Part shown: positions 3,213 through 29,006 of the stretch, one piece after another
Numbering within the stretch: position 1 is the first letter of the stretch
Layout of the letters: each line of letters opens with the position of its first letter
From: Pyrodictium abyssi
GTDB lineage: Archaea; Thermoproteota; Thermoprotei_A; Sulfolobales; Pyrodictiaceae
DNA length: 32,000 nt
Direction of reading: 5' to 3'
Assembly: GCF_036323395.1 (NCBI RefSeq)
Contig: NZ_AP028907.1
Coordinates: 570,001-602,000 of the forward strand
Made by a program: the position numbers and the translations under genes
Notes under the pieces: model-generated
What the model saw: the letters and a program-made list of their open reading frames with translations, nothing else
The model's database searches: none
What the model was told of the DNA's origin: nothing

Positions 3213-3230
3213 GCATAGGAGGTGGTACAC

Positions 3231-5852: not shown

Positions 5853-5876
5853 CACGCTATGCGGGGTGGCTAGCCT

Positions 5877-6518
5877 ATGACCCGGTACGCGATGGTAATA
5901 GACCTGGGGAAGTGCGTCGGCTGCTCAGCATGCGTGGCTGCATGCATAGCTGAGAACCTCAACAGCCCCACGTACTACCAGCCGCCGCCGCTGGCGAAGC
6001 TGCTAGGCCTGGTGGAGGAGGCCCGGCGGGAGGAGGCTAGGACGCTGATACACGAGCTGCTCTGGACGCGCACAAGCGTGCACCGCGTCTACGGCGGCGG
6101 CAGCATGACGGTGTACCACCTCATCTGCCAGCACTGCGACAACGCGCCATGCGTCACAGTATGCCCCACGGGGGCCAGCTTCCAGCGCCGCGACGGGATA
6201 GTGCTGGTGAACCCCGGCAAGTGCATACTCTGCGGCTACTGTATAGCAGCCTGCCCCTACGGCGCGCGCCACGTGAACCCCTTCACCCGGACCGTCGACA
6301 AGTGTACGTTCTGCGTACACAGGCTAGAGCAGGGCAAACAGCCGGCATGCGTAGAGACCTGCCCTACCGGGGCCAGGATACTAGGCGACCTAGAGGACCC
6401 CCGAGACCCCGTAGCGAGGCTCGTAGCGAGCGGCCAAGCCCGGCCAGGCTCCCCTGGAGCAGTCCTAGGCCCCACAGTGCCCCGGGTCTACACCGTGCCG
6501 CCCCAGAAGAAGAGCTAG
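5877..6518 (+). CDS. four-cluster 4Fe-4S ferredoxin-type electron-transfer subunit (PsrB/NrfC/DmsB-like)
   Basis: The 213-aa product carries the Cys motifs CVGCSACVAAC, CQHCDNAPCVTVCP, CILCGYCIAACP and CTFCVHR..CVETCP. It starts 24 nt after the catalytic-subunit stop. Confidence 0.93.
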   Translation: MTRYAMVIDLGKCVGCSACVAACIAENLNSPTYYQPPPLAKLLGLVEEARREEARTLIHELLWTRTSVHRVYGGGSMTVYHLICQHCDNAPCVTVCPTGASFQRRDGIVLVNPGKCILCGYCIAACPYGARHVNPFTRTVDKCTFCVHRLEQGKQPACVETCPTGARILGDLEDPRDPVARLVASGQARPGSPGAVLGPTVPRVYTVPPQKKS

Positions 6519-7292: not shown

Positions 7293-7650
7293 GGGTGTTG
7301 TCAGGAGTGTCTTCTACGAGCTGCCCGGCTACAGGTACTTCGCAACAATGCCTATGAGGGTCTGGGACCTGGCGTCGGTGGCTGCTATGCTTTGGGTCTT
7401 CTACCGCCGCGTCGAGCTAGTGGAGCCGAGCCGGGACCCCCTGGGGGCGGAGGTGCTCGTAGCCAGTGAGCCCCGCGGGGACGCGCCGAGCAGCAGGGAG
7501 CTCTGGGAGACACTGCCAGAACAGCTCCAGGGGGCCATAGGCAACAGTGGCTCCGAGAAGAGGGGTCTAGTCTACCTGCTCGCCCCGTATCTCTACGCCG
7601 AGCTGCTCGGCCAGCTCCCGGGCCCGTCTACGGTAGCCGGGAGCGACTAG
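7279..7650 (+). CDS. ORF that may be the C-terminal continuation of the methyltransferase in a +1 frame
   Basis: The ORF starts 14 nt before the stop of 6789..7292. VVRSVFYELPGYRYFATMPMRVWD and EVLVASEP resemble the terminal beta-strands of methyltransferases. The last ~28 codons overlap the convergent gene 7567..8466. Confidence 0.35.
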   Translation: MIQLRGVVRSVFYELPGYRYFATMPMRVWDLASVAAMLWVFYRRVELVEPSRDPLGAEVLVASEPRGDAPSSRELWETLPEQLQGAIGNSGSEKRGLVYLLAPYLYAELLGQLPGPSTVAGSD

Positions 7651-8466
7651 GAGTAGCCTCGGCCTGACCCCGGTCTCCTTCTCGTAGAGCCTGCCTATCC
7701 TGTAGAGCTCCGCCACGTCGGCGCGGTCTGCTAGGGACTTGTACTCGACCAGGACGTGCACGTCGTCCTTCACCAGCACGTCTACCTCTACCACCGAGGG
7801 GTGGCCGAACACTAGGCCCTCCCGGTCATAGGCGGTCCAGCGCACTGCCCGGTACCCCCGGAGCAGGTCCTCTACGAGGTACTTCACGGCCCCGCGGAAG
7901 GCCTCCTCCGTCGCCGCGCCGTAGCGGTGGCCTAGAGCCATTATCTTCGCCGTGAGCTCCTGTACCGCGCGGGACAGCTGCTCGAGACGCTCCTCGACAC
8001 GGAGCACCCTCTCCTCGAGCCTTTGCTGCCTCTCCTCCAGCCGCTGCTGTGCCTTCCGTAGCTCCAGGAACTCCTCCTCTAGCCTTGCGAACCGCTCCTC
8101 CAGTCTCGCAAAGCGCTCCTCCAGCTCCGCGAACCTCTCCTCTAGCTTGACGAACCTCTCTTCTAGCAGCTGCTGGCGCTCCTCTAGCTTCGCTATGCGC
8201 TCTTCTAGCCTAAGCATCCTCTCCTCTAGCTCTGCGAACCTTTCCTCGAGGCGGGCGAAGCGCTCCTCAAGCCTGGCAAACCGTTCCTCTAGCCTCTGCT
8301 GTCTCTCCTCCAGCACTTGTTGCCGCTCTTCTAGCCTTGCGAACCGCTCTAGCAGCTCCCGGTAACCCAGCAGCCCCATCACAGCGTGGCGGAACTCCCG
8401 GTCCTCCTCGAGGAGGTCTAGCAGCGCCTCCTTGAGAGCCCTCCGGTCCCCCGCTACACCCGCCAC
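7567..8466 (-). CDS. coiled-coil (LEERFAR heptads) protein with a C-terminal PD-(D/E)xK nuclease-like domain
   Basis: The 299-aa product has about 170 aa of heptad repeats at the N-terminus. The C-terminus reads VVEVDVLV..VHVLVEYKS (D..ExK core). From memory it resembles archaeal proteins annotated DUF3782-like. Confidence 0.85.
   Translation of the reverse strand: MAGVAGDRRALKEALLDLLEEDREFRHAVMGLLGYRELLERFARLEERQQVLEERQQRLEERFARLEERFARLEERFAELEERMLRLEERIAKLEERQQLLEERFVKLEERFAELEERFARLEERFARLEEEFLELRKAQQRLEERQQRLEERVLRVEERLEQLSRAVQELTAKIMALGHRYGAATEEAFRGAVKYLVEDLLRGYRAVRWTAYDREGLVFGHPSVVEVDVLVKDDVHVLVEYKSLADRADVAELYRIGRLYEKETGVRPRLLLVAPGYRRRARELAEQLGVEIRGEQVD
7990..8346. repeat. 17 tandem 21-bp units (coding heptad repeats)
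   Basis: The units all start CTCCTC/CTCTTC (for example CTCCTCTAGCCTTGCGAACCG) with strict 21-nt periodicity. They lie entirely inside the CDS 7567..8466. Confidence 0.9.
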
Positions 8467-10618: not shown

Positions 10619-11677
10619 ATGGCGCCCATTCAAGGGGTCCTAGGAGGGGATCCGGGTCTGCCGGCTGAGGTTCTCGGGTGTAGGGTCTACCTGAACCGGC
10701 TAGCCGGGCCGGAGCCCCTGCTGGTTGCAGACTGCACTGTGGCCGGCACGGTGGCCTCTAGGGACGAGGCCCGTGCTGGGCTAGAGAGCCTCCTCCGGCT
10801 CCTAGGCGAGGTGCTCGGCCCGGGCGGGCTCGAGCCCGTGGACTATGGCGTGGAGCCGCTCGCGCGCCGGAGGTTCACTGTGCATAGTAGCCGGCTGCGG
10901 GGCGGCGGCGAGGCCCGGCTCGTGGAGGCCCGGGGCACAGCGCTAGCGGCCGCAGCAGTGCTCCCCGCGGGCACGGTGGCCCGGGTGGACCCCGGCGCCA
11001 GGGAGAGGCTCGAGAGGGGCGAGGCCATTAGGCTGGGCGAGGCCCTAGAGCCGCCCGTCTACCTCCCCGGGCCCGTGCTCGAGCCCGGCGACGGCAGGCC
11101 GGCCGGCCAGAAGGCTATACCGCGCTTCGTCACCTACGCCGCCGAGGGGCTCCCCGGGGCCACGCCCAGCACCCCGGCTATACGGGTCTACACGCCCCAG
11201 GGCACGTACGTCGTGGACCAGGAGGCCCTCCTGGAGGCGGCTGGGTGGCTTGTGCTAGACATGCACTGCGTCACGGGCTGGAGCGTCGAGGGGAAGCGCT
11301 GGCTCGCTGCCCCGCTACGCGAGGTCCTCCGCCGCGCTGGCGCCCCGGTGCCCAGCGGGGGCTGGCTGCTGGCCCGCAGCGCCGGGGGCTACTCCTCCGT
11401 CGCTCCGCTCGGGGAGGCCCTCGAGCACGGCTACATAGCCGTGGGCCTGGAGGGCGGGCCGCTCAGCCAGGACCGCGGCGCGCCGGCGAGGCTGCTGCTC
11501 CCCAGGCTCTATGGCTGGAAGCACGCCAAGTGGCTCGCCGAGATACACATCCTCACAGGCTACGTCGACGGCTACTGGGAGGCAAGGGGCTACCACGAGC
11601 GCGGCCTCGTAGCCCTAGAGGAGCGGTTCAAGATCCGCAACCCAGAGCTCCTGGAGGCGGCCGCGCGGCAGGCGTGA
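10619..11677 (+). CDS. sulfite-oxidase-family (YedY/MsrP-like) molybdopterin-binding oxidoreductase with an unassigned ~190-aa N-terminal region
   Basis: The C-terminal half carries LDMHCVTGWS, GGYSSVAPL, GGPLSQDRGAPARLLLPRLYGWKHAKWL and YWEARGYHERG. Confidence 0.82.
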   Translation: MAPIQGVLGGDPGLPAEVLGCRVYLNRLAGPEPLLVADCTVAGTVASRDEARAGLESLLRLLGEVLGPGGLEPVDYGVEPLARRRFTVHSSRLRGGGEARLVEARGTALAAAAVLPAGTVARVDPGARERLERGEAIRLGEALEPPVYLPGPVLEPGDGRPAGQKAIPRFVTYAAEGLPGATPSTPAIRVYTPQGTYVVDQEALLEAAGWLVLDMHCVTGWSVEGKRWLAAPLREVLRRAGAPVPSGGWLLARSAGGYSSVAPLGEALEHGYIAVGLEGGPLSQDRGAPARLLLPRLYGWKHAKWLAEIHILTGYVDGYWEARGYHERGLVALEERFKIRNPELLEAAARQA

Positions 11678-13105: not shown

Positions 13106-13852
13106 CTAGAGGCCTAGCTGCTCTAGGAGCTTCCTGGCTATCTGCTCTGTGTCCCTGGCCATCTCGGTGGCTAGGAGCTTCTCGGGGCTGCCTAGGGCGT
13201 CTTCTACGCCTGGGTCGTAGCGTATGCGGCCTAGGTAGCGGGCCTTGTACCGCTCGGCGAGCTCCTCGAGGCTGCCTGGGCCTGTGGCCATGTTCTCTAC
13301 GAGGTAGCGGTCTACGCCCTGCTCTTCTAGGATGGCTAGTAGCCGTTCAACGCCTACGCGGGCTAGCCGGGAGGGGGTGGCGACGGCTAGGACTCTGGGC
13401 CCGGGGAGGTACTCGAGTGTGTCGAGGGCCTCGTCGCGGAGCCCCGGCGGGGTGTCCACGACGAGGAGGTCTAGCTCGCCCCAGTTGGTGACCGCTAGCA
13501 CCTCCCGGATCGCGTCGTCTACGGCGTGGCCGCGGAGCGGGGTCGGCTTATCCCAGGTGTAGAACGCTACGGTCATGAACCTGACGCCCGCCACCTCTGG
13601 GGGTACTACGCCGTCCCTCTCCTCGGGCTGGAGCCTCCTCGGGTCGACGCCGAGGGCTATGTGGGCGGAGGGGCTGGTGACGTCGAGGTCTAGGAGGCCT
13701 ACCCGGCGGCCCATCCGGGCCGCGTGGAGCGCGGTCAGCACCGCTACCAGGGTCTTGCCGACGCCGCCCTTAGCGCTCATAACCGGGACTACCGCCTTCA
13801 CCCTGGAGAGCATCAGCCTGGCCCCGGCCAGCCGGGGGTCGATGGAGCCCAT
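13106..13852 (-). CDS. Mrp/MinD-family P-loop ATPase, likely ATPase-type HypB (Ni-insertion partner of HypA)
   Basis: The ATG is at 13852 (MGSIDPRL). The product has the deviant Walker A SAKGGVGKT, plus LLDLDVTSPS and LLVVDTPPG. It starts 18 nt downstream of hypA. The longer ORF to 14290 overlaps hypA with Arg/Pro-rich sequence. Confidence 0.86.
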   Translation of the reverse strand: MGSIDPRLAGARLMLSRVKAVVPVMSAKGGVGKTLVAVLTALHAARMGRRVGLLDLDVTSPSAHIALGVDPRRLQPEERDGVVPPEVAGVRFMTVAFYTWDKPTPLRGHAVDDAIREVLAVTNWGELDLLVVDTPPGLRDEALDTLEYLPGPRVLAVATPSRLARVGVERLLAILEEQGVDRYLVENMATGPGSLEELAERYKARYLGRIRYDPGVEDALGSPEKLLATEMARDTEQIARKLLEQLGL

Positions 13853-13869
13853 ACGCTCCACGCCCGGCG

Positions 13870-14277
13870 TCACCCCGCGGTCTCCTCCGAGCGCTTGACG
13901 GCTAGGGCTAGGCGGACGCCGCGGCCACTGGTTATCTCGTAGTCGCGGCTCCCGCAGAACGGGCAGCGGACGAAGCTGTAGACCGCCTCGGGGACGAAGT
14001 GTATGGCCTCGCGCGTGGCCTCGTCGAGCTCCACGGCGTCTAGGCCCCACTCGCGGCCGCAGACGCGGCAGCGGAACCGGGCGGGCTCTGTCTCGTAGCG
14101 CACCCGGGCCCCGGGCGCGATCTGGGGCAGAGCCTCGCCCAGGTAGGTCTCGACAACCCCCCGGTCGACGTTCTGGAGCTCGCCGAGGTAGACGACTATC
14201 TCCTCCAGCTCGTAGCCCCTCTTGACGGCCTCCTCGACCTCGGCTATAATGGCGCGTATGAGGGCCCACTCGTGCAA
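13870..14277 (-). CDS. hypA: hydrogenase nickel-incorporation protein HypA
   Basis: The start is TTG 14277. The N-terminus is MHEWALIRAII. The zinc motif is CRVCG..CPFCGS, and the length is 135 aa. Confidence 0.9.
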   Translation of the reverse strand: MHEWALIRAIIAEVEEAVKRGYELEEIVVYLGELQNVDRGVVETYLGEALPQIAPGARVRYETEPARFRCRVCGREWGLDAVELDEATREAIHFVPEAVYSFVRCPFCGSRDYEITSGRGVRLALAVKRSEETAG

Positions 14278-15992: not shown

Positions 15993-17365
15993 CTAGGCTC
16001 TGCGGAGGTCTAGGGCCGGCTCTTCCACCATGCCTAGCGCGTCCTCGCCCTCCCAGGAGCCCTTCACCGTGACCCTGCCGCGTACGAGCTGGAGGTGCTT
16101 GACCACAGTTCCCCCAGTACCCCGGCCTCCCTTGCCGCGTGGAGGAGGGCCTTCAGCATCTCTATGCTCTGCGTTGCTACGAGCACCTGGTTCCCCCTCA
16201 GCCACTATGCTGGCTACGAGCCCCGCAACAGCCTCGAGGCCGTCAGGGTGCACAAAGGCCTCCGGAGTATCCACCAGGGCCAGGGAGCCACGCGGCGAAG
16301 CAGCATAGAGGAGTCCCAGGAGCACAGCAGCACGCTGCCCATCACTCAGCCGGTAGACGCTTATCCTCCTGCCACAGGTGCTCCTCGCGTGCAGCTCGCG
16401 GCCAATTAGCTCAAAGCCACTAAACCGGGGTATGAAGGCCCGCAGGAGCCGCACTGCGTCCCGCTCCCTGGGCAGCCCGCGCTGCTTGACACTGTCGTAG
16501 TAGAGGGACTCGAACATGAACGGGCGATACGCGAAACCCGGGTGAAACACAAGGATACTCTTCCTTGTATCTAATGGTGTACTCCTCTCGAAGCGACGGC
16601 TTGCCGCCATAGAGTGTATAAGCCAAGTACAGATTGCCCTTATAGAGTCGAATGTATGAGGGAAGTGCCCCTCTAGCACCAAAACGGGGAGACGTTGAAA
16701 GCTCGTATTCCTCTCCTAGCACGTCATGTAGCATATGCAGCAGGTCGCTCAACCTGATCCTTATACTCAGAGAACCATATGGAAACTCATTCATTATTTC
16801 TTCTATGCCTTGATAGAATGACTCAATCACACGAAGCGTATCCTTCAATGTTAAGCTATAGGCTTCCGAATCGACTATTCTTCCAACAATATGGGGTCTT
16901 ATACGCGTAAACATATGATCCAGCGACAGAGGGTCGGCAGCCTTAACCAGTATCGCTTACACGTTCTATGCCATAATCTTCGCCATTCCCGCTCTCTTCT
17001 GATTCTCTAACGAGACCGGCTAAGAACGATGGAATCGCAGTCTGTTGCCTCATAGTCCTTATCATTGCAAGCGCCGGTGCTATGCTCTCCCCATGCCCTG
17101 TCAGTGCAACGGTATAGCCTAGAGCCTCTAGAAGCGACGTCTTACCAGACGCATTGCGGCCCACTATGATGGTGAAGCGCTGGAGACCGTTGACATCTAC
17201 CTCTAGGCCCTCCAGCTCGCCTTCGCTAATGTACGGTAGATATGCCTTAACCTCTTCTATATGTGTCACAGCCACCTCTACCCCAAAGACACGACTATAC
17301 CGAGAAGCACAATAAATGGTCCTATGCCGAGAAAAGCCGGTACCTCGGTTAGGCTCTATCCGCAT
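15993..17365 (-). pseudogene. ABC/AAA_21-like ATPase, a paralogue of 18276..19394, broken by at least four frameshifts
   Basis: The Walker A is GRNASGKTSLLEAL (ORF 16943..17365). The middle part lies in ORF 16420..16914. LSDGQR and LALVDTPEAFVHPD lie in ORF 15993..16682. NQVLVATQSIEMLKALLHAAREAG lies in a third frame. The junctions are near 16950, 16548, 16195 and 16100. GC content is lower than in the neighbouring genes. Confidence 0.75.
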
Positions 17366-17578: not shown

Positions 17579-18253
17579 CTAGGCTTGGCGGGCTATAATG
17601 CTTCTTATGAGCTGCTGGTAGCGTCTCGCGGCAGGTGTGTCGGCTAGGTCGAGCTTGTCTAGCGCCGCTCTAACGTCTATGCCGCAGTGGCGTTCTGCCG
17701 GGACGAGTACTGGTGTCCCGCCTCCCCCGGCGCAGGCTGCTAGGAAGAGGACTGGCTCGTACTTGGCGTAGTCGCGGGAGCAGCGGCTGCTGGGGCAGCG
17801 GCTGCATGCCTGCGGCGCCTCTGCCGGCTCGTAGCTGTACTTCTCCTCGAGCATCTCCCCTAGCACGTCCTCTACTGTGCCGCGGCAGGGGCTGCCGCTG
17901 CACCAGAACGATATGTAGCTGGTCCTCCGCGCCCCCTGGCTCACAACCGTTACCTCGAGGAGCGGGGGCGGCTGCGGGCCGCGCTTCAGCCTGGTCTCGA
18001 CGGCTAGTCCTCGCCTCTTCGCGTGCCTCTCCAGCACCCTGATGACCTCTTGCACCCGCTTGTCGACGCCTGCGTCGGCGTCGATAATGCCTAGTATCGT
18101 TGCCCGGGAAGCAGCTAGCCCCACCGTCTGCCTCACCACGCCCGTCCATCCCCCGGCTAGCTCGGCCTCGGCGTCTACGCCAGCCTTGCCCGCGAGCCAC
18201 TCGGCTAGAGCAGCGTCGAGGCAGCCCTCGACCAGGATGCGGAGCCTCGCCAT
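17579..18253 (-). CDS. Toprim-like (DUF4276/RloB/AriB-like) protein with a Cys-rich insert, partner of the upstream ATPase
   Basis: ATG 18253 lies 22 nt after the ATPase stop and follows a GGGAGGG box. RILVEGCLD is followed about 50 aa later by IIDADAG (Glu + DxD, the Toprim arrangement). Cys motifs are CSGSPC and CSRCPSSRC. Confidence 0.65.
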   Translation of the reverse strand: MARLRILVEGCLDAALAEWLAGKAGVDAEAELAGGWTGVVRQTVGLAASRATILGIIDADAGVDKRVQEVIRVLERHAKRRGLAVETRLKRGPQPPPLLEVTVVSQGARRTSYISFWCSGSPCRGTVEDVLGEMLEEKYSYEPAEAPQACSRCPSSRCSRDYAKYEPVLFLAACAGGGGTPVLVPAERHCGIDVRAALDKLDLADTPAARRYQQLIRSIIARQA

Positions 18254-18275
18254 ATCCCGGGGGCCCTCCCAGGGG

Positions 18276-19394
18276 CTAGAGGAGCGTGTAGCTCAGCCTC
18301 ACATCCCTGCTACCCGCTATATGGCTCAGCGCCTCGCACCCCGCCAGCCTCATGGAGCGGAGGCTGTCCCCGTCGCGGTCCAGCACCACCAGGGCTAGGA
18401 GGCGCTCGAGCTCATCCTCGCTGTCGGGCTCGGTGCATGCACGGCGCGACTCCTCCAGCAGCCGTGCCGGGCTCCTCCAGGCAGCACGGTCCCGGGTCAC
18501 CAGCGCGGCCGCGAGCATCCTGGCAGCCTCCAGGCTCTGCGTCGTGATGACGAACTGCTTCCCCCTCCTCGCCGCCTCGGCAGTCCTAGCGGCGATGGCC
18601 TCGAGTAGCTCGGGGTGCATTGCGGACTCTATCTCGTCCACGAGGATTATGTCCGCTAGGCTTAGCAGCAGTAGGTACTGGAGGCCACGCTGAAGACCCC
18701 GGCCAACACTGTAGAAGATAACCTTCCTCGGCCTCTCCTGGCCCGCGTCCTCGACGACGTAGGCGGCCATCTGGTCCCAGTCGTCGCTAGCGAGATCCAC
18801 CTTGAACCTCCTCCCGGCTATCTCGAGCGTAAGCGCCTCTAGGCTCTCCTGCTCCCGCTTCAACCTGCCAATAACCATGTCGAAGAAGTCATACGGTATT
18901 ATACCCGGGGTCAGCACGCCTACGCCGAGCTCCTGGCTAAAACAGTCCCTCCCATCAGCCCTCACGCCTATACCAGCCGGCTCCAGGGTGTAGGTCAGGC
19001 TACACTCCCGCCTAGTCGCCCTAAGCTCCACCTCGACGACGGTAACCAGCTGAGCGCCACGCGACTCCTGGCGAGACTCCCTCGTTATCTCCGTGCAGAC
19101 CTCCTCGCCGCCGAGGGAGACACAGGCCCTCGCCGACGCAGCCCCCGGCGGCACGAGCGAGGCGATTGAGTGCTTCTCGCTGCCACGAGCAGCATACATA
19201 ACCATCAAGTAGTAGTTCGCAAGCTTCACGTCAGCGTAGTTTAGGACGAGGCTCGTAGCCGCAGCCTCAAGGAGACTAGTCTTACCAGCATTATTAGGGC
19301 CGACCACTATGTTGAGCGCGGCACCGAGCTCCACACTATCCCGGAGACCCCGAAAACCATCCAGAGAAACACGCTCAAGCCGCCCAGCAGCCAA
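18276..19394 (-). CDS. ABC/SMC-like (AAA_21/OLD-N-terminal type) ATPase
   Basis: The Walker A is GPNNAGKTSLLEA, followed by ILVDEIESAMHP and FVITTQSLEAA. The preferred start is TTG 19394, 9 nt after GGAGGGTGG (19412-19404), with a TTTATT box at about 19441-19448. The maximal ORF to 19658 adds Pro/Arg/Gly-rich sequence that is unlikely to be coding. Confidence 0.85.
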   Translation of the reverse strand: MAAGRLERVSLDGFRGLRDSVELGAALNIVVGPNNAGKTSLLEAAATSLVLNYADVKLANYYLMVMYAARGSEKHSIASLVPPGAASARACVSLGGEEVCTEITRESRQESRGAQLVTVVEVELRATRRECSLTYTLEPAGIGVRADGRDCFSQELGVGVLTPGIIPYDFFDMVIGRLKREQESLEALTLEIAGRRFKVDLASDDWDQMAAYVVEDAGQERPRKVIFYSVGRGLQRGLQYLLLLSLADIILVDEIESAMHPELLEAIAARTAEAARRGKQFVITTQSLEAARMLAAALVTRDRAAWRSPARLLEESRRACTEPDSEDELERLLALVVLDRDGDSLRSMRLAGCEALSHIAGSRDVRLSYTLL

Positions 19395-20486: not shown

Positions 20487-20884
20487 CTGTATGCCTCAGA
20501 GCCGGCCGAGGTCCTCGCTGCTGTGGGCGAGGCCGGCCCAGAGCAGGCTCGAGCACTGTGTGCCCCGCGTAGCCGGGTTGATAGCGAAAGGGCAGACTCA
20601 TTAGTAGCCCACGAATGAATACGCCCTTAGGATAGCCGCTGCTAACGTGCTTTGATGAAATCTGCGAGAGGCTGGTAGGCTTGTAGCGATGCTAGACTCC
20701 TATACAGCTATGGTTTGTGTTATTGCTGTGTAGAGAGCTGTTGCTTTCCGTGAAGCAGCTCTAGTATTCTTTTCATTATCTTATCCGAGTTCTTGCTCTT
20801 TGGTATGCGTATTACGGCGTACTGTGTTGCGATTACTATTTCAGTCTCTTCTGTTGTAGCTGGCAACACTGGCCCGTAGCTTAT

Positions 20885-22861
20885 GTGTCCAGGAGTCTCT
20901 CGCGGCGATACTGGGTGCCGGGTGTTACTATTTTGGCTGGGGACGCGCCCAGTATAGGCCAGCTGCTATCCATATGCGGCGGGGAAGAGTACAAGGGCAC
21001 TATGCTTTGTAGGCTTATCAACGCCTATGCTGCGGGCGACCGTGGCGCAGCTGTCAGTCTTGCTCGTGACCTGTTCGGGCTTGTTAGGGAGCTTAGCGGT
21101 GCCGGGAGGGGTGGCGGGCCGCGTATTCTCGTTTCTGTTGGGCCTTCGAGGCACTGGCGCGATTCCTTCATGTATGCTGCTAGGCATGGCCTTGTGCCGT
21201 GGGCCTGTGGGTTTACCCTAGAGGACTCTGTTCTCGAATCCTCTAGGAGCGGTGGCCCGCATTATCGTGCCCTCTTGGATGCTCTTGCGAGGGGCTTCTT
21301 GGAGAGGGATGGCGTGTTTGAGGCTGTGCCGCCGATAATCCTGTATTATTCGAGTGGTGTTAGTGTTATTGGGTTTGGGCTTGTCGTCTGGGCTGACGTG
21401 TCTCCTTTGAGGGCTAGGCTATGGTCTGAAGAGCGTTGTCCGCCGAGCGGCAAGGGCACGTGCTATACCGTGAGATGGTATACGTTGCCTATTGCTCTGG
21501 GCTGTAGGGCTGTCGGCGAGCGGGGGGTTGTCGAGCCTGGTAGAGAGTGTGCTCTGGGCGGGATAGAGGCTGGTTATGCCAGGAACTGTGCTCAGAGTGT
21601 CTCCCGGGATGTTTACCCGCGTCTTGTTGAGGCGTTGCTGCGTGCCGTTGATGGCGGGGCTGGTGCTGAGAGGGTGGGGTATGCTGTTGAGCTGGTCTCC
21701 TCCGCGCTGGGGGAGGCGGGGCCTCCGCGGCCTAGCCGCCTGGACGCGTACCTGGGGGCTGGGCCCTCTGGCGTTGTGGCGGAGAGGGGCTGGAGGGAGG
21801 TCCTAGAGGACCCGGGCACCGTGGAGAGGATTGTCAGGGAGATACATGGTAGGGGTGTCTTCCTCCCGGAGCAGCTTGTCAGGGTTATCGTGTTCCTGGT
21901 CGCGAATGGTAATGTGCTGCTTGCTGGGCCTCCGGGGTACGGTAAGACCCTGCTTGCGAGGGTTATAGCCGGGGTCACCGGCTCGGAGCTCGTGCCTGCC
22001 ACGTGTCATGCTGGGTGGACGCGCTCGGAGTTCATCGGGGGCCCGTACCTCCGCCGGGGCGGCGTGGCCTGGAGGTCTGGCTACCTGGTGCGCGCTGTGG
22101 CTAGGGCTCTCCAGGGCCGCCGTGTCCTGCTGTTGCTCGACGAGGTGAACCGGGCTGAGGTGGACAAGGTATTTGGCGAGTTCTTCACGGTGTTCCCGTC
22201 GCCCTCGGCGGAGGAGTGGAGCATCGGAAGCCTCTGCGATATCGTGTGCGGGGAGAGCAGCGAGGAGGAGAGGGACGAGCCCGCTAGGATACTCTGCAGC
22301 GCGTGTGGTGATAGGGAGAGGCTGCAGCGGGTCCGGGATCTCCTGCGTATAGTCGCCACGATGAATACTGTCGACTATGCTACCGTGTTTGGCGTGGGGG
22401 AGGCGTTTGGGAGGCGCTTCTACAAGGTAGAGTTCCTGGCCTCCTCGGACGCCGGGTACATACTAGAGAGTGAAGTGAGGCCCGTGTTCCGCCACGTTGT
22501 GAAGCGCCTCGGCCTGGCCAGCGACAGGCTGAGGGGCCTCGAGGAGGTGCTCGAGAAGCTGGCTAGGTTCGTGGCGGAGCTTCGTAGGGCTAGGGATGAG
22601 GCTGGTGTAGCGGGTATTGTGGTGACGCAGCTCCCGGTAGGCCCGGCCTTCGTCAGGGAGGTGGTGACCGTGGCTGCTCGTATGCTGGCGGCGGGTGTTG
22701 TCGGGGACCCGGTCTGCGCTGTGGCCCGGGCGATAGGGGCGAGTATCCCGGTGACGGTGCTCGTGGAGGAGGAGTCGAGGGAGAGGCTTAGGAGGGCGTT
22801 GGCCGGCGCCTTCGGGGACGCTGTGGAGGAGAAGTGTAGACTCGTGGCTGGTAGGCCTTGA
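20885..22861 (+). CDS. McrB-like AAA+ (AAA_5) NTPase with an unassigned ~330-aa N-terminal region
   Basis: The start is GTG 20885 after an AT-rich region. The Walker A is GPPGYGKT. LLLDEVNRAEVDKVFGEFF matches Walker B plus the McrB-type DEINRA..KIFGEL element. IVATMNTVDYA parallels MNTADRS, and EAFGRRFYKVEF parallels ALRRRF. Confidence 0.87.
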   Translation: MSRSLSRRYWVPGVTILAGDAPSIGQLLSICGGEEYKGTMLCRLINAYAAGDRGAAVSLARDLFGLVRELSGAGRGGGPRILVSVGPSRHWRDSFMYAARHGLVPWACGFTLEDSVLESSRSGGPHYRALLDALARGFLERDGVFEAVPPIILYYSSGVSVIGFGLVVWADVSPLRARLWSEERCPPSGKGTCYTVRWYTLPIALGCRAVGERGVVEPGRECALGGIEAGYARNCAQSVSRDVYPRLVEALLRAVDGGAGAERVGYAVELVSSALGEAGPPRPSRLDAYLGAGPSGVVAERGWREVLEDPGTVERIVREIHGRGVFLPEQLVRVIVFLVANGNVLLAGPPGYGKTLLARVIAGVTGSELVPATCHAGWTRSEFIGGPYLRRGGVAWRSGYLVRAVARALQGRRVLLLLDEVNRAEVDKVFGEFFTVFPSPSAEEWSIGSLCDIVCGESSEEERDEPARILCSACGDRERLQRVRDLLRIVATMNTVDYATVFGVGEAFGRRFYKVEFLASSDAGYILESEVRPVFRHVVKRLGLASDRLRGLEEVLEKLARFVAELRRARDEAGVAGIVVTQLPVGPAFVREVVTVAARMLAAGVVGDPVCAVARAIGASIPVTVLVEEESRERLRRALAGAFGDAVEEKCRLVAGRP

Positions 22862-24228
22862 AGCCGAGGCGGAGGAGAGGGCTGCCGCCGTACACCGACT
22901 ACCTGGTCAGCCGGTGTGCGAGCCTCTACCTCCTCTTCCCGCGTACAAGCCTGTACTCCATGTCGGCTGGTAGGCCCGGGTACGTGGACACGGTGGTATC
23001 GCTGCTAGCGGCCCACTACATCCTGGTCTACGCGGCGAGGGCCGCGAGGAGCCTTGTCGTGGAGATGCACCGTGTGCTGAGCAGCACTGAGGTAGCGGAG
23101 TCTTACAGCCCTGCAGGCTACCTGGACGTGGCTGCGTCGGCCCGGAGCCTCATGAGGCTCGGTCCCCCGGTGTGGAGGCGGGTGAAGCGCGGCCCCGCCC
23201 CCGTCGACCGCCTATGCCTTTGCGGGCTCTTTGCGAGGATACTCTCCGCGGCGGAGAAGCTCAGCGAGAACACCGGCAGGGTCTACGACCACATGAGAAG
23301 CGTTTACGGGGTAGACGTCGAGGGTTCCCGCCCCCTGAGGCGTCTGCGGCGCCGCGCCGAGAGGGCGAGGGAGGACCTGGCGAGGATGGCTCTGCGCGAG
23401 TGCGGCCGCCTAGCCGCTGCGGGGACGAGTGTCTGCCGGGACGCGTTCACCCGGAGGGGCGGGAGGCTGAGCAGGTACTTCAACATCCTCGTGGATATCG
23501 TGGCGTCTCTCGAGAAGGCGGTGGAGGAGGGCAGGGTGGACCTCGACATTAGGGCTCGGGGCGCCGAGGCCGGCCAGGCGGCCCGGAAGCTGGCTCTCCG
23601 GATGGCTGTTGAGCGGCTGTACGAGCTCTACACGCTCTACATAGTCCTACGGGCCCTCTCAAGGCTCGGCGAGGTCCGGAGCGAGGACAGCACTATACTC
23701 GTCGAGTTCGGAAAAGGCATACGCGTATTCTACAATAGCCGCCCGAAGGCCGGAGACAAGCCTCTGAGCAGAGTAGCGCTAGGCGAATCCGACCACCTAG
23801 ACGACGGGGACCTGGAGAGGCTCTCGGGTATACCCGATATAACACTCGTCATAAACAACAGGGTGAAGGTAGTCATAGAGGTCAAGCACAGCTACAACAT
23901 AGGCTACCTGGCGCTCGCCAGGTTCAAGACCATAGCGTACATACACGAGTACGACGCGGACGCAGGGATACTAGTATACCCTGGCCTAAGCCATACACGG
24001 AAGAGAGGACAGGCTCGCGGGATGCTCGACGAGGAGTACGAGGCTACACGGACAGTCCTAGAGAGGGCCGAGACAAGAGGACACGCCACGATAAGACTTA
24101 GGGACAATGCAAGCCTCTACATCATGCCCCTCATCCCCGAGGAGAAGCGAGAACAAGACAACGTAGACAAAATGTACAAAGTCCTAAACAGCATCATACG
24201 AGAAGCAGACGCCTCAGGACTAGCTTAG
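22858..24228 (+). CDS. McrC-like partner with a C-terminal PD-(D/E)xK nuclease motif
   Basis: TTG 22858 overlaps the upstream TGA (TTGA). The product contains LYELYTLYIVLRAL, GIPDITLVINNRVKVVIEVKHS (D..ExK) and GILVYPG. ATG at about 22960 is an alternative start. Confidence 0.78.
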   Translation: MKPRRRRGLPPYTDYLVSRCASLYLLFPRTSLYSMSAGRPGYVDTVVSLLAAHYILVYAARAARSLVVEMHRVLSSTEVAESYSPAGYLDVAASARSLMRLGPPVWRRVKRGPAPVDRLCLCGLFARILSAAEKLSENTGRVYDHMRSVYGVDVEGSRPLRRLRRRAERAREDLARMALRECGRLAAAGTSVCRDAFTRRGGRLSRYFNILVDIVASLEKAVEEGRVDLDIRARGAEAGQAARKLALRMAVERLYELYTLYIVLRALSRLGEVRSEDSTILVEFGKGIRVFYNSRPKAGDKPLSRVALGESDHLDDGDLERLSGIPDITLVINNRVKVVIEVKHSYNIGYLALARFKTIAYIHEYDADAGILVYPGLSHTRKRGQARGMLDEEYEATRTVLERAETRGHATIRLRDNASLYIMPLIPEEKREQDNVDKMYKVLNSIIREADASGLA

Positions 24229-24333
24229 GACCTCGCTAGCTGGATGCTGAAGGTACTCTGCCCAGAGCCAGTTAAGTCATCACCCGTCAGCCACACTATA
24301 GCCTCAGGCGAAGTCTGTTACTTTCTCAGTGTC

Positions 24334-24528
24334 CTAAGTAAGGATCCTAGCTAGCTCGCTAACTAGTTGATTGAAGCCCTCAAGTGGCTTGCTACATTGT
24401 CTCTGGATCTCTTCATAGAGTTTGGGGTCGTTCTCTTCTATAGCGCTGAGGATATCCTCTGCAGGGTTCTGCCGCGACGTTATCAAGGCTTGTACATTGC
24501 CACGTAGACCTTTAAGATAGCTCTTCAA
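24334..24528 (-). CDS. small hypothetical protein
   Basis: The 64-codon ORF starts at TTG and has helical-looking sequence. It lies in the low-GC block. Confidence 0.35.
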   Translation of the reverse strand: MKSYLKGLRGNVQALITSRQNPAEDILSAIEENDPKLYEEIQRQCSKPLEGFNQLVSELARILT

Positions 24529-24649
24529 AGACCAGAGTTAAATAGAGCGAAATAAACCGCACTTATGATTCGCCGAATCACTACTTCATTTAACTTATGT
24601 CTCTCGTTCTTTAACATCCTCATAAAGTATTCTAGGAGCCTACGTGGAT

Positions 24650-24868
24650 TCAGCTCCTCCGGGTCCTGAGTGCTTGCTTGCATACTAGCGCCACCCGTCC
24701 AGCAACGTCGTCAAAGCCTTCGCTGACAAGCTGTTTCTTGACTGTCCTCGAAAGAATCTTCCACTCATCCCAGCCACAGTCTTCAATATAGATTCCGATG
24801 AACTGGGGTTGCCCCGTCTCTAAATCCTCCACAAGATTTATGCTAGTTACCTTAAGTTCTAGGTACAT
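24650..24868 (-). CDS. small hypothetical protein
   Basis: The 72-codon ORF overlaps the stop of 24852..25145 by 17 nt, suggesting operon-like coupling. Confidence 0.45.
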   Translation of the reverse strand: MYLELKVTSINLVEDLETGQPQFIGIYIEDCGWDEWKILSRTVKKQLVSEGFDDVAGRVALVCKQALRTRRS

Positions 24869-25145
24869 TCGTAAGCCATATAATCATGGATGCAAGTTTC
24901 CCTAGGTCTAGGAATCTAAGCCTCTTAATAGCATCTATGACCTCATCAGTTTCAGTGTACCGCTTGAGCGTCGTTAAAACGTCTTCTTTAGACATCCTAA
25001 GCATGTCATATAATTGGCGAATAGTTGGCGTCGCTCTCTGCTCCCTAAGTTTGATATGTAGCCTAGTAGTATTCTCTAGTGTCGTGTCGACAAATACATT
25101 CCTTACCGGGATGCCGAGCTCTATTGGAGGAATGCTAGATAGCAT
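24852..25145 (-). CDS. small hypothetical protein
   Basis: The 97-codon ORF is in the low-GC block. The frame stays open for about 23 codons upstream without a start codon. Confidence 0.45.
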   Translation of the reverse strand: MLSSIPPIELGIPVRNVFVDTTLENTTRLHIKLREQRATPTIRQLYDMLRMSKEDVLTTLKRYTETDEVIDAIKRLRFLDLGKLASMIIWLTNVPRT

Positions 25146-25252
25146 GTACGCTCTATCCCATGACTTTGAAAGCCTTGTTCCCAGGAGCAGAGTCTCGGTG
25201 TTAAAGTAGTCTTTTTACAAGCATCATAGTGCATCACCACACCACCCTATTC

Positions 25253-25504
25253 TCACTTCTTCTCAACGTCTTCTCGTATCTCACCCCAGGTTATCTTAGG
25301 CACCCACCTTACAACATATAGAGGCAGGCCCTGGATAGTCTTAAACAAGGTATTCTTGGAAACCATTATAGGTTCAATCTCAACCCTAATCAAGTACCTC
25401 CCGATTCTCTCGTCGCTATAGACGACCTCCTCGTATGCAGGCGCTTTCTCGACAATATCCACCCTAGTCCAACCCTCACTAACAGTCTTGCCCGGCTCCA
25501 ACAC
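25253..25504 (-). CDS. small hypothetical protein, possibly the 3' part of a frameshifted ~135-aa gene starting at ATG 25658
   Basis: The 83-codon ORF starts at GTG 25504. Upstream in frame it reads FGAEFDVNATGGIAVYPSEGALDEVRDKP without a start codon. Another frame reads MGSIIILRVAVVDVRGSGGGFSF up to a T-run near 25590. Confidence 0.45.
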   Translation of the reverse strand: MLEPGKTVSEGWTRVDIVEKAPAYEEVVYSDERIGRYLIRVEIEPIMVSKNTLFKTIQGLPLYVVRWVPKITWGEIREDVEKK

Positions 25505-26000
25505 CGGCTTGTCTCTGACCTCGTCTAAGGCGCCCTCGGAGGGATAGACTGCTATACCACCGGTAGCATTAACGTCAAACTCTGCTCCAAAAGGAGAAGC
25601 CTCCTCCCGAACCCCTCACGTCAACAACAGCCACACGTAGAATGATTATACTACCCATCGCTCACCTTGACATAACCCAACCCGCTATCCCTAAACCTCA
25701 GCCTATCATACAATATTTGCGTTCACCTAGCATCCCTCCCGCTTATAAAGTAGTATCCATCATGCTTGATAACCTCTGTAGAAGCTAATCACCTCAACCC
25801 GCCACAAATCGGGGATATTAATCACCTAGCCACAGTTCATAGGTCCTCTGTCAACAGCATTCTCCATTATTTCATCTACTAAGGCCCCACTTCTAAACCT
25901 AGTCATGTAGCCGGCCCGGTATCTCCCTGAGCTAGAGACACATAACAAGATAAAACCCTACCTTGAGAAGAGAAAAAGATTTGCATAGATTCTTTATATG

Positions 26001-26053
26001 TGGTTGGCCCGCCGTGGGTTTGAACCCGGGACCCCGCGGCTCCGGAGGCCGAG
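26001..26053 (-). other. tRNA-Arg(CCG)-like 3'-half relic (candidate att site), not a functional tRNA
   Basis: The minus strand reads CUCGGC-CUCCGGA-GCCG..GGUCCCGGGUUCAAACCCACGGCGGGCCAACCA. This gives an anticodon-arm-like hairpin with CCG, a T-arm-like GGGTTCAAACCC and an acceptor-like 3' end. The T-stem has two mismatches, and no D-arm or 5' acceptor lies upstream, where the sequence is AT-rich. Confidence 0.5.
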
Positions 26054-26132
26054 AACGTATAAGTAATGTTTCCAATAAAAACCATAAAATGGAAACATTC
26101 TTCACAAGTGATTATCTGTTTGGTTATCAACA

Positions 26133-26405
26133 TTGATGGCCTGGAACACCCAGCCTGCGGAAAAGCTAATTGCTTCAACGCACATAGTGTCCAGGCAGGG
26201 GCTAGAATTGTCCAGAGTCATAAGGGTGAGGTACGAGGATGGTGTACTGAAGCCGTTGAGTAGTGTTGACCTTGAGGAGGGCAAGGAGTATAAGGTGATA
26301 GTGGAGGAGGACATAGACGAGCTAATCAAGAGGTACCGTGGTGTTCTTGGGGAATCGTCTGTTGAGGAGTTCCGGGAGCTCGAGGAGGAGGCACAGGCCC
26401 AATGA
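26133..26405 (+). CDS. DUF104 (AF2212-like) antitoxin
   Basis: VIRVRYEDGVLKPLSSVDLEEGKEYKVIVEE is the family signature. The true start is probably internal (GTG at about 26187 or a nearby TTG). An ATGA overlap couples it to the PIN gene. Confidence 0.8.
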   Translation: MMAWNTQPAEKLIASTHIVSRQGLELSRVIRVRYEDGVLKPLSSVDLEEGKEYKVIVEEDIDELIKRYRGVLGESSVEEFRELEEEAQAQ

Positions 26406-26860
26406 TATGCCTCGATACGAACGTCATCTACCACTTCCTCTTTGAGACAGAGCTAACTAGCGCCTCAGAGAGAATCCTCCGGGAGGCCATTGCAGAGGGC
26501 ATGGCTATCCCCATGATAGTATACAATGAGTTGCTCTACATAGTGGGCGCCAAGATTGCTAGGATGAAATACGGTGTTAGGGGAAAATACTCCTTCCGGA
26601 TGCATATAGCCAGGCACGGATTCCCCGGAGAAGCCATAGAAAAGGTTAACGGTTTCATCCGGGACTTCAAAGTAACCATGCTAAGGGATTATCAAGACCC
26701 AGACGAGCTAGTCAAGACAATTAAGCTCTACAGGCTGGCGCCAAACGACGCACAAATAGTCTTAACCTGCAAGAATAGCGATATAGAGACACTGGCAACA
26801 TTCGACGAAGACTTCAAGCGGGTTCCATGGCTCAAAGTAGTCCCTCGATTCTTGATGTAG
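26402..26860 (+). CDS. vapC: PIN-domain toxin VapC
   Basis: The product reads MICLDTNVIYHFL..NDAQIVLTCKNSDIETLATFDEDFKRV. It is intact at 152 aa. Confidence 0.9.
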   Translation: MICLDTNVIYHFLFETELTSASERILREAIAEGMAIPMIVYNELLYIVGAKIARMKYGVRGKYSFRMHIARHGFPGEAIEKVNGFIRDFKVTMLRDYQDPDELVKTIKLYRLAPNDAQIVLTCKNSDIETLATFDEDFKRVPWLKVVPRFLM

Positions 26861-27356: not shown

Positions 27357-28106
27357 TTGCGGTTGTCCGACTTGTTGCTCTACATTGTGTCGAGGTTTCC
27401 ACGGGGTATTGGCCGTACCAGGCTTATGAAGCTCTTGTTCCTAGTTGATGCTGTAGCTGCTGAGAGGCTTGGGCGCGTGGTTAGTGGTGTGGAATGGCGC
27501 CGCTGGCGCTACGGGCCTTTCTCCAAGGAGGTGCTTAATGTCCTGGACGAGCTCGTGGAGGAGGCGTTGCTGGCCCTAGATCCGGGCCCGGAGGTGAGGT
27601 ATGTAGCGCTAGCGGAGCCCCCTGAGCTTCCTGGGGATGTGAAGGAGGTCGTGGACTACGTTGTTGATAGGTATGGGTTTATGCCGCTAACGGAGCTCCT
27701 TAAGGAGGTATACGATAGGTATGACATACATGGTATGGCTATGGGTGAGAGGATTATTCTTGACTGGCGCCGGGAGCTCCTGGAGCTTGCCGAGAAGGCG
27801 GACAGTGATATGGACGCCCTCGTGGAGCTTATGGGTAGGCTCTACGACGCGTATAGGGATGCTCTCGAGGCCCTGCCTGGCGAGACCCTAACCCTCTACA
27901 ATATAGCCGCAGTGTACCTCGCCAGCCGCGACCCGGAGAGGCTGAGGAAGCTAACCACAACGCTCCTTGACGTACTAGACGAGGTCAAGAAGGAGATATC
28001 GACGGGTGGGAAGGGAGGGGCTGTCATCTCCGCCGAGACGCGGCGGAGGATAGCAGAGCTGTACCGTGAGCTGCGTAGGGCTGCCGTAGAGGCCCTGGAG
28101 GGCTAG
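27357..28106 (+). CDS. Panacea/DUF4065 (SocA-like antitoxin) domain protein with a helical C-terminal extension
   Basis: RTRLMKLLFLVDAVAAERLGRVVSGVEWRRWRYGPFSKEVLNVLDELVEE matches the DUF4065 pattern (KLqKLLY...w.yGPv). The start is ambiguous (TTG 27357, 27363 or 27372, or GTG 27387). Confidence 0.78.
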   Translation: MRLSDLLLYIVSRFPRGIGRTRLMKLLFLVDAVAAERLGRVVSGVEWRRWRYGPFSKEVLNVLDELVEEALLALDPGPEVRYVALAEPPELPGDVKEVVDYVVDRYGFMPLTELLKEVYDRYDIHGMAMGERIILDWRRELLELAEKADSDMDALVELMGRLYDAYRDALEALPGETLTLYNIAAVYLASRDPERLRKLTTTLLDVLDEVKKEISTGGKGGAVISAETRRRIAELYRELRRAAVEALEG

Positions 28107-28115
28107 GCGGACGGC

Positions 28116-29006
28116 TTGCAGTTTCTCTACCTGGACTCCTACTACTTCTACGCGCCCATTCCCCGGGTTCTCTGGCTCAGGGAGAAGCTGGGAAAGACGG
28201 GTATCCGCGGTTATAGGCTCCTCTATATGCAGTTCTCGAGCCCCAGCTATTTCCTAAAGAGCCTAACCCGTGTCATAGCCGGCTACAGTGTAACTAGCAT
28301 AGCAGTGCCAGCGTACAGCACTACAGCGCGTAGAGGGGGTAGAGGTGGTGCACTGAAGCCTCTGGAGAAGCTTCTCAAGATACTAGGCCCGCTGTTCAGC
28401 GGGAGGGAGAGGAGCAAGACCATCAACGTGCTTCACCTGGCTAGGCTGGTGGGGGAAGAGCAGGCAGCCATACTGGATTTCCTCATATTCCTGTACAGTC
28501 ACGCAGAGAGAGCGGAGAGAATCATCGCTGAGGGTGCATGCGACGCTAGGGTAGAACGTAGAGTGCCACGACACGTGGCTAAGCAGCTCCAGAGGCTTCC
28601 GGCGCCAGAGAGCCTTGCCCAGCTTATCCGGCAGCAGGTCTCTCTATACAAGCTGTATGCCGGGTACATGGCGTGTAGCGCCTGCCGGCTCCTGGGGCTC
28701 AGCTATCCACACGGCATGAACACTATAAACAGGCTCGATAACCTCGGGGAGGGAGACCTTACAGTGTTCCTGTCCACCCGTTGTCCGCAGTGCAGCAGCT
28801 CATGCCCGCCGGGGAAACACCGAGACGACATAGCGAGAGCGATCACGCTCCACAGATACGCGGCACAGAGGCCCGGCCACAAAATAGTCATAGCGAGTAT
28901 TGAATCCGTTAAGAAGCCTCCTAGGGACGAGAGCAAACGCGAATGCTTCTCCTGCCTCGCAGACTGCTTAGCATCACTCCTACCTAATATCGACACCATA
29001 ATGTAG
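28116..29006 (+). CDS. uncharacterised Cys-rich protein, candidate partner or toxin of the Panacea-domain protein
   Basis: The 296-codon ORF starts 10 nt after the upstream stop. It has a possible HTH-like stretch (INVLHLARLVGEEQAAILDFLIFLY) and Cys pairs (CSAC..CPQC, CFSC). I recognise no family. Confidence 0.6.
   Translation: MQFLYLDSYYFYAPIPRVLWLREKLGKTGIRGYRLLYMQFSSPSYFLKSLTRVIAGYSVTSIAVPAYSTTARRGGRGGALKPLEKLLKILGPLFSGRERSKTINVLHLARLVGEEQAAILDFLIFLYSHAERAERIIAEGACDARVERRVPRHVAKQLQRLPAPESLAQLIRQQVSLYKLYAGYMACSACRLLGLSYPHGMNTINRLDNLGEGDLTVFLSTRCPQCSSSCPPGKHRDDIARAITLHRYAAQRPGHKIVIASIESVKKPPRDESKRECFSCLADCLASLLPNIDTIM

Follow-up and report, generated by a model that had tools for sequence, protein, structure and literature searches.

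Here we describe a pair of overlapping genes carried on a 32,000-nucleotide stretch of the Pyrodictium abyssi genome (contig NZ_AP028907.1, positions 570,001 to 602,000; hereafter, the window), which probably encode a type IV (modification-dependent) restriction enzyme of the McrBC type that falls in the canonical NxxD clade and has an EVE/YTH-like reader. The domain composition of the two proteins, their intact nucleoside triphosphatase (NTPase) and nuclease motifs, the translational coupling of the genes and their conserved synteny are directly observed. A McrBC-like pair had been proposed in a first-pass annotation of the window, and this proposal is supported, the AAA+ half by its sequence and the partner by its predicted structure and nuclease core, with the two conserved as neighbours. 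Most likely, the pair is not a system of a new kind but a standard combination of EVE-McrB with McrC, found in a highly divergent lineage of hyperthermophilic Thermoprotei. The novelty lies in this lineage itself, whose reader and McrC-like subunit are both missed by curated profile libraries.

The two subunits

In the open reading frame (ORF) list of the window, the first gene encodes 658 residues from a GTG start and the second 456 residues from a TTG start, both on the forward strand. The two overlap by four bases, TTGA, with the TTG start at 22858-22860 and the TGA stop at 22859-22861 (context ccTTGAag at 22856-22863). These ORFs, their sizes and their overlap are as the first-pass annotation had described them, and the motifs that it cited, i.e., GPPGYGKT, LLLDEVNRAEVDKVFGEFF, MNTVDYA and GRRF in the first product and IPDITLV..VVIEVKHS in the second, were each located in the translations, most of their key residues being invariant across homologues. 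The identical NCBI protein (100% identity), a Pyrodictium abyssi 'AAA family ATPase', is 642 aa long, which puts the annotated start of gene 1 at the TTG at 20933, 16 codons after the GTG.

The AAA+ subunit had been called McrB-type, and several comparisons agree with this. Scanning the gene 1 product against Pfam gave AAA_5 at aa 343-512 (E 3e-16), and a family profile of 8 homologues (A1), when compared with the Protein Data Bank (PDB), matched E. coli McrB at 9e-13 in one stretch and Thermococcus gammatolerans McrB at 2e-9. The best PDB match in a single stretch was McrB with 50.5 bits, against 22 bits for the best single midasin domain. Using hhalign, the A1 profile was aligned to E. coli K-12 McrB with a probability of 98.3% (E 1.4e-14, 26% identity), query residues 324-646 covering McrB residues 176-444, which is the complete AAA+ module including the lid. 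Midasin/MoxR was also considered as the nearest AAA+ relative and was rejected, as the high midasin total is the sum of six weak domains and the best single-domain match is McrB.

The Walker B stretch LLLDEVNRA is followed by VDKVFGEFF, and LLLDEVNRAEVDKVFGEFF is aligned to IIDEINRANLSKVFGEV of E. coli McrB. MNTVD, DEVNR and RRF are invariant in the alignment of 8 homologues, as are N494 and D497 of MNTVDYA (aa 493-499), which aligns with MNTADRS of E. coli McrB. In all McrB homologues MNxxDRS stands in place of sensor I, its N and D being catalytic, and roles have also been described for D279, E280 and N282 of E. coli McrB (PMC7680126). McrB GTPases are split into NxxD and NxD clades (PMC11090510), therefore the NxxD motif places the gene 1 product in the canonical clade and not in the NxD/CoCoNuT branch. 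Judged by its sequence, the AAA+ half is McrB-clade; like its analogues, it would prefer GTP and be stimulated in hydrolysis by the partner. Between Walker B and the signature, aa 438-487 (22196-22345) form a segment ~20 residues longer than in E. coli McrB. This segment contains four Cys (C451, C455, C471 and C474), of which C455 and C471 are invariant, and they may form a disulfide or a metal site.

The partner had been thought to end in a D..ExK nuclease core, and this core (P326-D327 ... E341-x-K343) is intact and invariant in the family alignment of 12 sequences (A2). When A2 was compared with E. coli McrC, PDITLV..VIEVKHS was aligned with TDITIR..IVDAKYY and GILVYPG with GLLIYPH, which places the catalytic core on D244/D257/K259 of the E. 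coli protein (P 0.098, or 0.005 with an enlarged profile). The same profile weakly matches the Cas4 nuclease 4ic1 (E 0.0046). Because the sequence alignment to E. coli McrC recovers the nuclease core alone, the McrC assignment rests mainly on predicted structure and synteny. The AlphaFold model of the partner (pLDDT, the predicted local distance difference test, 81; pTM, the predicted template modelling score, 0.79) has McrC chains as its top three Foldseek matches in the PDB, namely E. coli 6ut6_G (E 2e-6) and 6hz4_M (1.2e-5) and T. gammatolerans 6ut7_G (5.3e-5), each with a probability of 1.0 and ~470 alignment columns over the full length of the partner. Next in the ranking are Can2 and type II restriction endonucleases.

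The predicted structure and the nuclease core together point to a McrC-like protein. Secondary structure, the structural match and conservation suggest that aa 1-268 are the counterpart of the McrC N-domain (DUF2357), and the conserved segment ES..GYLD...PPVWRRVRRG at aa 81-112 is a candidate for the stalk with the basic finger. Neither the Pfam scan nor the AlphaFold model of the partner contains a coiled-coil insert, a cold-shock domain or a HEPN domain. Whereas the AAA+ half matches McrB by profile, the partner matches no McrC or DUF2357 sequence model.

The N-terminal region and its likely role as a reader

Residues 1-330 of the gene 1 product have no Pfam, NCBIfam or PADLOC match, also at relaxed thresholds (E 1-10), and no Pfam match was found in the N-terminal part of any relative. 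The AlphaFold model of aa 14-335 (pLDDT 72, pTM 0.75) includes a three-helix cap and a helical linker that is partly disordered, pLDDT dropping below 50 at model residues 265-292, after the linker helices. Between these lies the core, aa ~76-250, which carries a variable insert of 20-60 residues between beta2 and alpha2. In 18 of 18 aligned members the core residues G86, W91, S94, G102, W106, G163, G165, W180, E183 and R197 are invariant. In the three-helix subdomain, C31 and C42 are invariant in 8 closer relatives (Pyrodictium, Pyrolobus and metagenomic), and the subdomain is reduced or missing in distant relatives. Across the N-terminal region as a whole, six Cys are invariant in the closer relatives and absent from the distant clade; these are probably stabilising rather than functional.

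The strongest homology of the core is to the EVE domain. At one distant locus (L010) a stand-alone gene at 2496-2945 encodes a Pfam EVE domain that scores 36 bits, the cut-off being 23, and a core profile of 18 sequences (A5) was aligned to this single protein with P 5e-5, the best of 47 unrelated control ORFs reaching P 0.021. Profile-profile comparison with an EVE family alignment of 14 sequences seeded by the same protein (A6) gave 85.2%, E 6e-6 over 99 columns. By eye, the EVE pattern W.I..SE.NW....vyG resembles fWvSaGs.EhW..S..ya...G..WG in the N-terminal half of the core, and the W106 correspondence is likewise a visual judgement only. The L010 EVE gene lies ~2 kb upstream of a distant McrBC-like pair, and close relatives of it occur in 34 metagenomic loci.

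A second line of evidence comes from the YTH domain. Against 177,635 PDB sequences, the sole match of A5 at E <= 10 was the YTH domain of yeast Pho92 (E 0.43), in which FY..G.G.IG.G...FW.EE...RW is aligned with LFFSINTSGRFCGVAE...IWEDEQ...FKVRWVI. Aligning the core to human YTHDF2 with hhalign (YTHDF2 sequence checked against 4wqn) recovered the same segment (P 0.0012); the global alignment failed, and the match is meaningful only as a local alignment of the beta3-beta5 region. Here W180 is aligned with the Trp of the GVW motif, which we take to be W486, one of the tryptophans of the cage around N6-methylated adenine (m6A). W106 and W180 are candidate aromatic pocket residues for a modified base by analogy with such readers.

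The third line is the fold itself. The order of secondary structure in the model fits a PUA-type fold, and Foldseek against the PDB was led by ASCH domains (5guq/5y6b; probability 0.77), followed at lower rank by the PUA-like matches AF2351, EF3133, 3s9x and the ATP-sulfurylase N-domain. All of these top ASCH/PUA-like matches are weak, and a Foldseek search of the same model against the BFVD viral fold library was uninformative.

Taken together, the core is very probably a highly divergent EVE/YTH-like domain of the PUA superfamily, although it falls outside Pfam EVE (PF01878) by the threshold of that model. Among the EVE-containing proteins of defence systems, EVE-McrB is reported to be the most frequent architecture (PMC7641849), and for this reason we regard the domain as a divergent member of a known reader class. 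The first-pass annotation had suggested a new reader domain. It stands that no curated hidden Markov model (HMM) recognises aa ~76-250, but the profile link to EVE and the YTH and ASCH signals tell against a new domain; the claim of novelty is weakened and not abolished, since the match falls short of a high-probability hit to a well-characterised reader. We consider it possible, if doubtful, that the reader belongs to an unclassified EVE-like clade of hyperthermophilic Thermoprotei, with its own insert, a Cys-stabilised helical cap in the closer relatives, and a specificity unlike that of the readers of 5-methylcytosine and 5-hydroxymethylcytosine (EVE, SRA, DUF3578) or of m6A (YTH). Candidate targets would then be N4-methylcytosine or a hypermodified base of archaeal viruses growing near or above 100 °C. 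5-Methylcytosine is chemically unstable near or above this temperature.

It is quite improbable that the N-terminal region has a truly new fold and function, e.g., as a Cys-rich metal-binding or protein-interaction regulator of the motor, with the EVE, YTH and ASCH signals being convergent or spurious. The silence of curated libraries, the six invariant Cys of the closer relatives, the moderate model confidence, Foldseek E-values that are not significant alone and the tiny family (20 representatives) would all be in keeping with such a region. However, three independent methods agree on one superfamily, the profile-profile E-value is far better than the controls, and the distant clade lacks the Cys and retains the invariant Trp/Gly/Glu/Arg core.

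An unlikely alternative is that the same motor-nuclease carries a PUA-like domain that binds RNA, or the sequence or structure of DNA, giving an RNA-targeting or site-specific system comparable to CoCoNuT or LlaI/BsuMI-type relatives. Domains of the PUA/ASCH superfamily mainly bind RNA (PMC7641849), the best fold match is the ASCH protein of Zymomonas mobilis (5guq), the sequence match is an RNA m6A reader, and non-canonical McrBC relatives with other targets are known (PMC11090510; bioRxiv 10.64898/2026.08.31.748284). Set against this, the GTPase motif is NxxD and not the NxD of the CoCoNuT branch (PMC11090510), the partner lacks the coiled-coil, cold-shock and HEPN domains, there are two genes and not three, and the closest homology is to EVE, a predicted reader of modified DNA in defence contexts (PMC7641849). 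Two specific classes were also rejected, i.e., CoCoNuT, on the NxxD signature and a partner without coiled-coil, cold-shock, HEPN or tandem-nuclease domains, and a three-gene LlaI-type organisation, the loci examined being two-gene.

Under the favoured reading of a modification-dependent McrBC-type enzyme, the solved E. coli and T. gammatolerans complexes (PMC7680126) serve as analogues for the mechanism. The EVE/YTH-like beta-barrel would bind a flipped-out modified base in foreign DNA, probably via W106 and W180, as EVE domains in defence contexts are predicted to read modified DNA (PMC7641849). The AAA+ domains would assemble as a hexamer, hydrolyse GTP and translocate DNA. One McrC-like subunit would insert its N-terminal stalk into the ring, where a basic finger acting on N494/D497 would stimulate hydrolysis, and the C-terminal PD-ExK domain of this subunit would cut the DNA.

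Several points weigh against this reading. Nucleotide preference, the hexamer, DNA cleavage and modification dependence are all inferred from the analogues. The best NCBIfam match of the gene 1 product, the McrB model NF008457, is weak and covers aa 324-447 only, its 37 bits being far under the 637-bit equivalog cut-off of E. coli McrB; the product is a McrB-family member and not an EcoKMcrB orthologue. Its signature is MNTVDYA, the trailing RS of MNxxDRS being replaced by YA. The fold match of the N-domain is weak (E 0.04; template modelling score 0.49 on the target length) and comes from a model of moderate confidence (pLDDT 72), and no N-domain sequence of the family (8 + 18 sequences) reaches E 10 against Pfam EVE, YTH or ASCH. 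For the partner, scans with 6 family members (the window protein and the 5 homologous partners from other loci) gave, again at E 1-10, no Pfam, NCBIfam or PADLOC match and no sequence-profile match to McrC, DUF2357 or PF10117. Its superposition on McrC has a high root-mean-square deviation (about 14 Å), which is compatible with different domain orientations in the model and limits the equivalence of the N-domain to that of McrC.

Distribution and comparison with known systems

The first-pass annotation had raised the question of whether the N-domain, AAA_5 and nuclease partner co-occur in related archaea, and the pair is adjacent or overlapping in 5 of 5 other loci checked gene by gene, one from Pyrolobus fumarii (L001) and four metagenomic (L004, L008, L009 and L010). 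In P. fumarii a 623-aa homologue (41% identity) is followed by an overlapping 448-aa protein that is 37% identical to the partner, and one metagenomic contig has the same arrangement. Three loci encode far more distant N-domain/AAA_5 proteins (about 20-25% N-domain identity), each with a gene of 447-474 aa directly downstream whose product matches the partner profile (6e-17 to 3e-49). The loci examined have no conserved third gene, and the neighbours vary from locus to locus. The P. fumarii homologue (L001 6001-7872, CP002838.1) is annotated by NCBI as a 'cyclic nucleotide-binding protein'. This label was rejected, its precomputed Pfam hits being AAA and AAA_5 only.

When 1.84 billion cluster representatives were searched exhaustively with HMMER, the N-terminal profile matched only 20 proteins at E <= 0.001. 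The P-loop (GPPGxGKT or G.PGTGKT) is found in 15 of 15 full-length relatives and Pfam AAA_5 in all 13 that were scanned or had precomputed hits; the remaining five matches are short fragments or a repeat artefact. Named members belong to Pyrodictium, Pyrolobus and a Desulfurococcales metagenome-assembled genome (MAG), and one is labelled McrB by IMG. A GTDB genome scan with the closer alignment found one Pyrolobus MAG contig only, and a word-indexed protein search with the divergent N-domain profile found nothing beyond one already known fragment. The named genomes among the homologues found are those of P. abyssi and P. fumarii only, plus one Pyrolobus MAG, and the family is confined to hyperthermophilic Thermoprotei. 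The source organisms are among the most thermophilic known. The lineage does not appear in the papers linking McrB with its genera, nor is it mentioned in those supplementary files of the McrBC census (PMC11090510) that were examined.

Compared with EVE-McrB/McrC systems (Bell, Wolf & Koonin 2020, PMC7641849; census PMC11090510), the window pair shares an N-terminal PUA-superfamily reader fused to a McrB-type AAA+ NTPase of the NxxD type, a McrC-like subunit directly downstream with a helical N-domain and a C-terminal PD-(D/E)xK nuclease, and a two-gene operon with mcrB first in a defence island. It differs in a reader too divergent for Pfam EVE and carrying the insert between beta2 and alpha2, in the Cys-containing three-helix N-terminal subdomain added in its closer relatives, and in a partner undetected by DUF2357 or McrC sequence models.

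The solved McrBC of T. gammatolerans (PDB 6ut3-6ut8; PMC7680126) likewise comes from an archaeal hyperthermophile and has a PUA-superfamily (YTH-like) reader; its AAA+ is matched by A1 and its McrC is one of the three chains that match the partner model best. However, its N-domain is unmatched by the window N-domain profile in the PDB search, the window AAA+ scores better against E. coli McrB than against that of T. gammatolerans, and the m6A specificity of its reader is not transferable to the window reader. With E. coli K-12 McrBC (EcoKMcrBC) the pair shares homology over the full length of the AAA+ (Walker A, DEINR-type Walker B, MNTxD and RRF), an alignable nuclease core and overlapping genes. 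In contrast, the E. coli reader is DUF3578/ADAM and not PUA-like, and the McrC-like subunit of the window is ~110 residues longer, with a more extensive helical N-domain.

These findings assign a function to proteins labelled 'AAA family ATPase' or, in P. fumarii, 'cyclic nucleotide-binding protein'. In the homologue search the partner had neither a source name nor a Pfam domain. Furthermore, a McrBC reader and its McrC-like subunit can diverge past the reach of Pfam, PADLOC and NCBIfam models, and defence censuses in the Thermoprotei may therefore undercount type IV restriction. Should the specificity turn out to be unusual, the pair would offer a thermostable, modification-dependent nuclease of use as a reagent and a hint at the DNA modifications used by hyperthermophilic archaeal viruses; otherwise the architecture and inferred mechanism are standard.

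Coordinates, composition and neighbourhood

Table 1. Positions of the operon and of its predicted parts in the window
Feature	Position	Strand	Basis or remark
Presumed promoter region, AT-rich intergenic, upstream of the operon	20640..20884	+	44.5% G+C against 62.1% in the window
mcrB-like gene: N-terminal reader region and AAA+ (AAA_5) NTPase	20885..22861	+	658 aa; NCBI start 20933, 642 aa
N-terminal three-helix subdomain, aa 17-75	20933..21109	+	AlphaFold secondary structure, alignment
Predicted reader: EVE/YTH-like (PUA-superfamily) beta-barrel core, aa ~76-250	21110..21634	+	hhalign, PDB profile search, Foldseek
Helical, partly disordered linker from reader to AAA+, aa 251-323	21635..21853	+	AlphaFold; poorly conserved
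McrB-type AAA+ NTPase module with lid, aa 324-646	21854..22822	+	hhalign, PDB profile, Pfam
Walker A GPPGYGKT, aa 348-355	21926..21949	+	All positions but one invariant in the family
Walker B and McrB-type continuation LLLDEVNRA, aa 415-423	22127..22153	+	Aligned to E. coli McrB
McrB signature MNTVD, aa 493-497	22361..22375	+	NxxD type, in place of sensor I
RR of GRRF, R510 and R511	22412..22417	+	Aligns with RRRF of E. coli McrB, sensor II/arginine finger region
mcrC-like gene, 456 aa, translationally coupled	22858..24228	+	TTGA overlap; AlphaFold and Foldseek
N-terminal helical bundle of the partner with beta hairpin, aa 1-268	22858..23661	+	Model, McrC structural match, conservation
PD-(D/E)xK nuclease core P326-D327 ... 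E341-x-K343	23833..23886	+	Invariant in 12 homologues

As would be expected in an archaeon, a scan for bacterial sigma-70 promoters found none upstream of the operon, and a terminator-like site at 24305-24317 was rejected as no better than chance expectation. The T-rich codons and AT-rich upstream region that the first-pass annotation had noticed were confirmed (Table 1), third-position T being 0.33 over codons 1-330, 0.18 over the AAA+ part and 0.08 in gene 2, compared with 0.02-0.07 in the host-like ORFs of the window. Third-position T thus drops stepwise from 5' to 3' along the operon, and third-position A is very low throughout gene 1. A mosaic origin, a reader replaced recently, or effects of strand or expression could account for this gradient.

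The pair shares a defence and toxin-antitoxin (TA) island with a Panacea-domain gene, a PIN/AF2212 pair, and an AriA/AbiL/PtuA-like ATPase whose partner is a DUF3226 protein. It has no linked methyltransferase, the nearest methyltransferase-like ORF lying ~13.6 kb upstream among metabolic genes. The odd codons, the defence/TA island, the patchy distribution and the neighbours that differ in P. fumarii make it plausible that the pair is foreign or mobile in origin, and the horizontal acquisition that had been suggested seems a reasonable view. These same features bear on whether the pair is a housekeeping AAA+/nuclease, e.g., for DNA repair or chromosome processing, which we judge to be very improbable indeed. 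AAA_5 ATPases include MoxR- and midasin-type remodelling proteins, and the defence role of the pair is a prediction; yet its distribution is patchy, its defence/TA neighbours vary between genomes, its codon usage is atypical, and it combines the McrB-specific signature with a McrC-like partner.

Other genes of the window were recorded alongside the operon. At 17579-19385 (-), and divergent from the McrBC-like operon, two genes appear to form a defence pair, in which an ABC-type AAA_21/AAA_15 ATPase (best PADLOC matches AriA, AbiLi, PtuA and GajA) is directly followed by a 224-aa protein with a weak DUF3226 match (E 0.001). Three consecutive ORFs at 15993-17365 (-), with a G+C content of about 48-56%, resemble a broken second copy of an AAA_21-type ATPase, with the P-loop at 16943-17365, no match at 16420-16914 and the AAA_21 C-terminal part at 15993-16682; this is probably a decayed defence gene. 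Directly downstream of the operon, G+C falls to 45-50% at 24334-26400, where four small minus-strand ORFs (64-97 aa) have no Pfam match, and this region may be a virus or plasmid remnant.

At 26133-26860 (+), a gene for an AF2212-like antitoxin (E 4e-19) overlaps one for a PIN-domain protein (E 5e-16), and the two form a VapBC-type toxin-antitoxin pair. Further along, at 27357-29006 (+), the gene for a 249-aa SocA/Panacea-domain protein lies 10 bases ahead of one whose 296-aa product has no match in Pfam or PADLOC; the two may represent an unclassified toxin with its Panacea-type antitoxin. A coiled-coil DUF3782 and PDDEXK_10 nuclease protein is encoded at 7567-8466 (-), ~12.4 kb upstream of the pair, and a protein with the same domains lies at 13410-13872 of the P. 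fumarii locus (L001), ~4 kb downstream of the homologous pair; this may reflect either linkage or merely a multi-copy family. Host respiratory genes with host-typical codon usage flank the island at 2064-6518 and 10619-11677, with a NrfD-like membrane subunit, a molybdopterin oxidoreductase catalytic subunit and a 4Fe-4S subunit on one side and a separate molybdopterin-binding oxidoreductase on the other.

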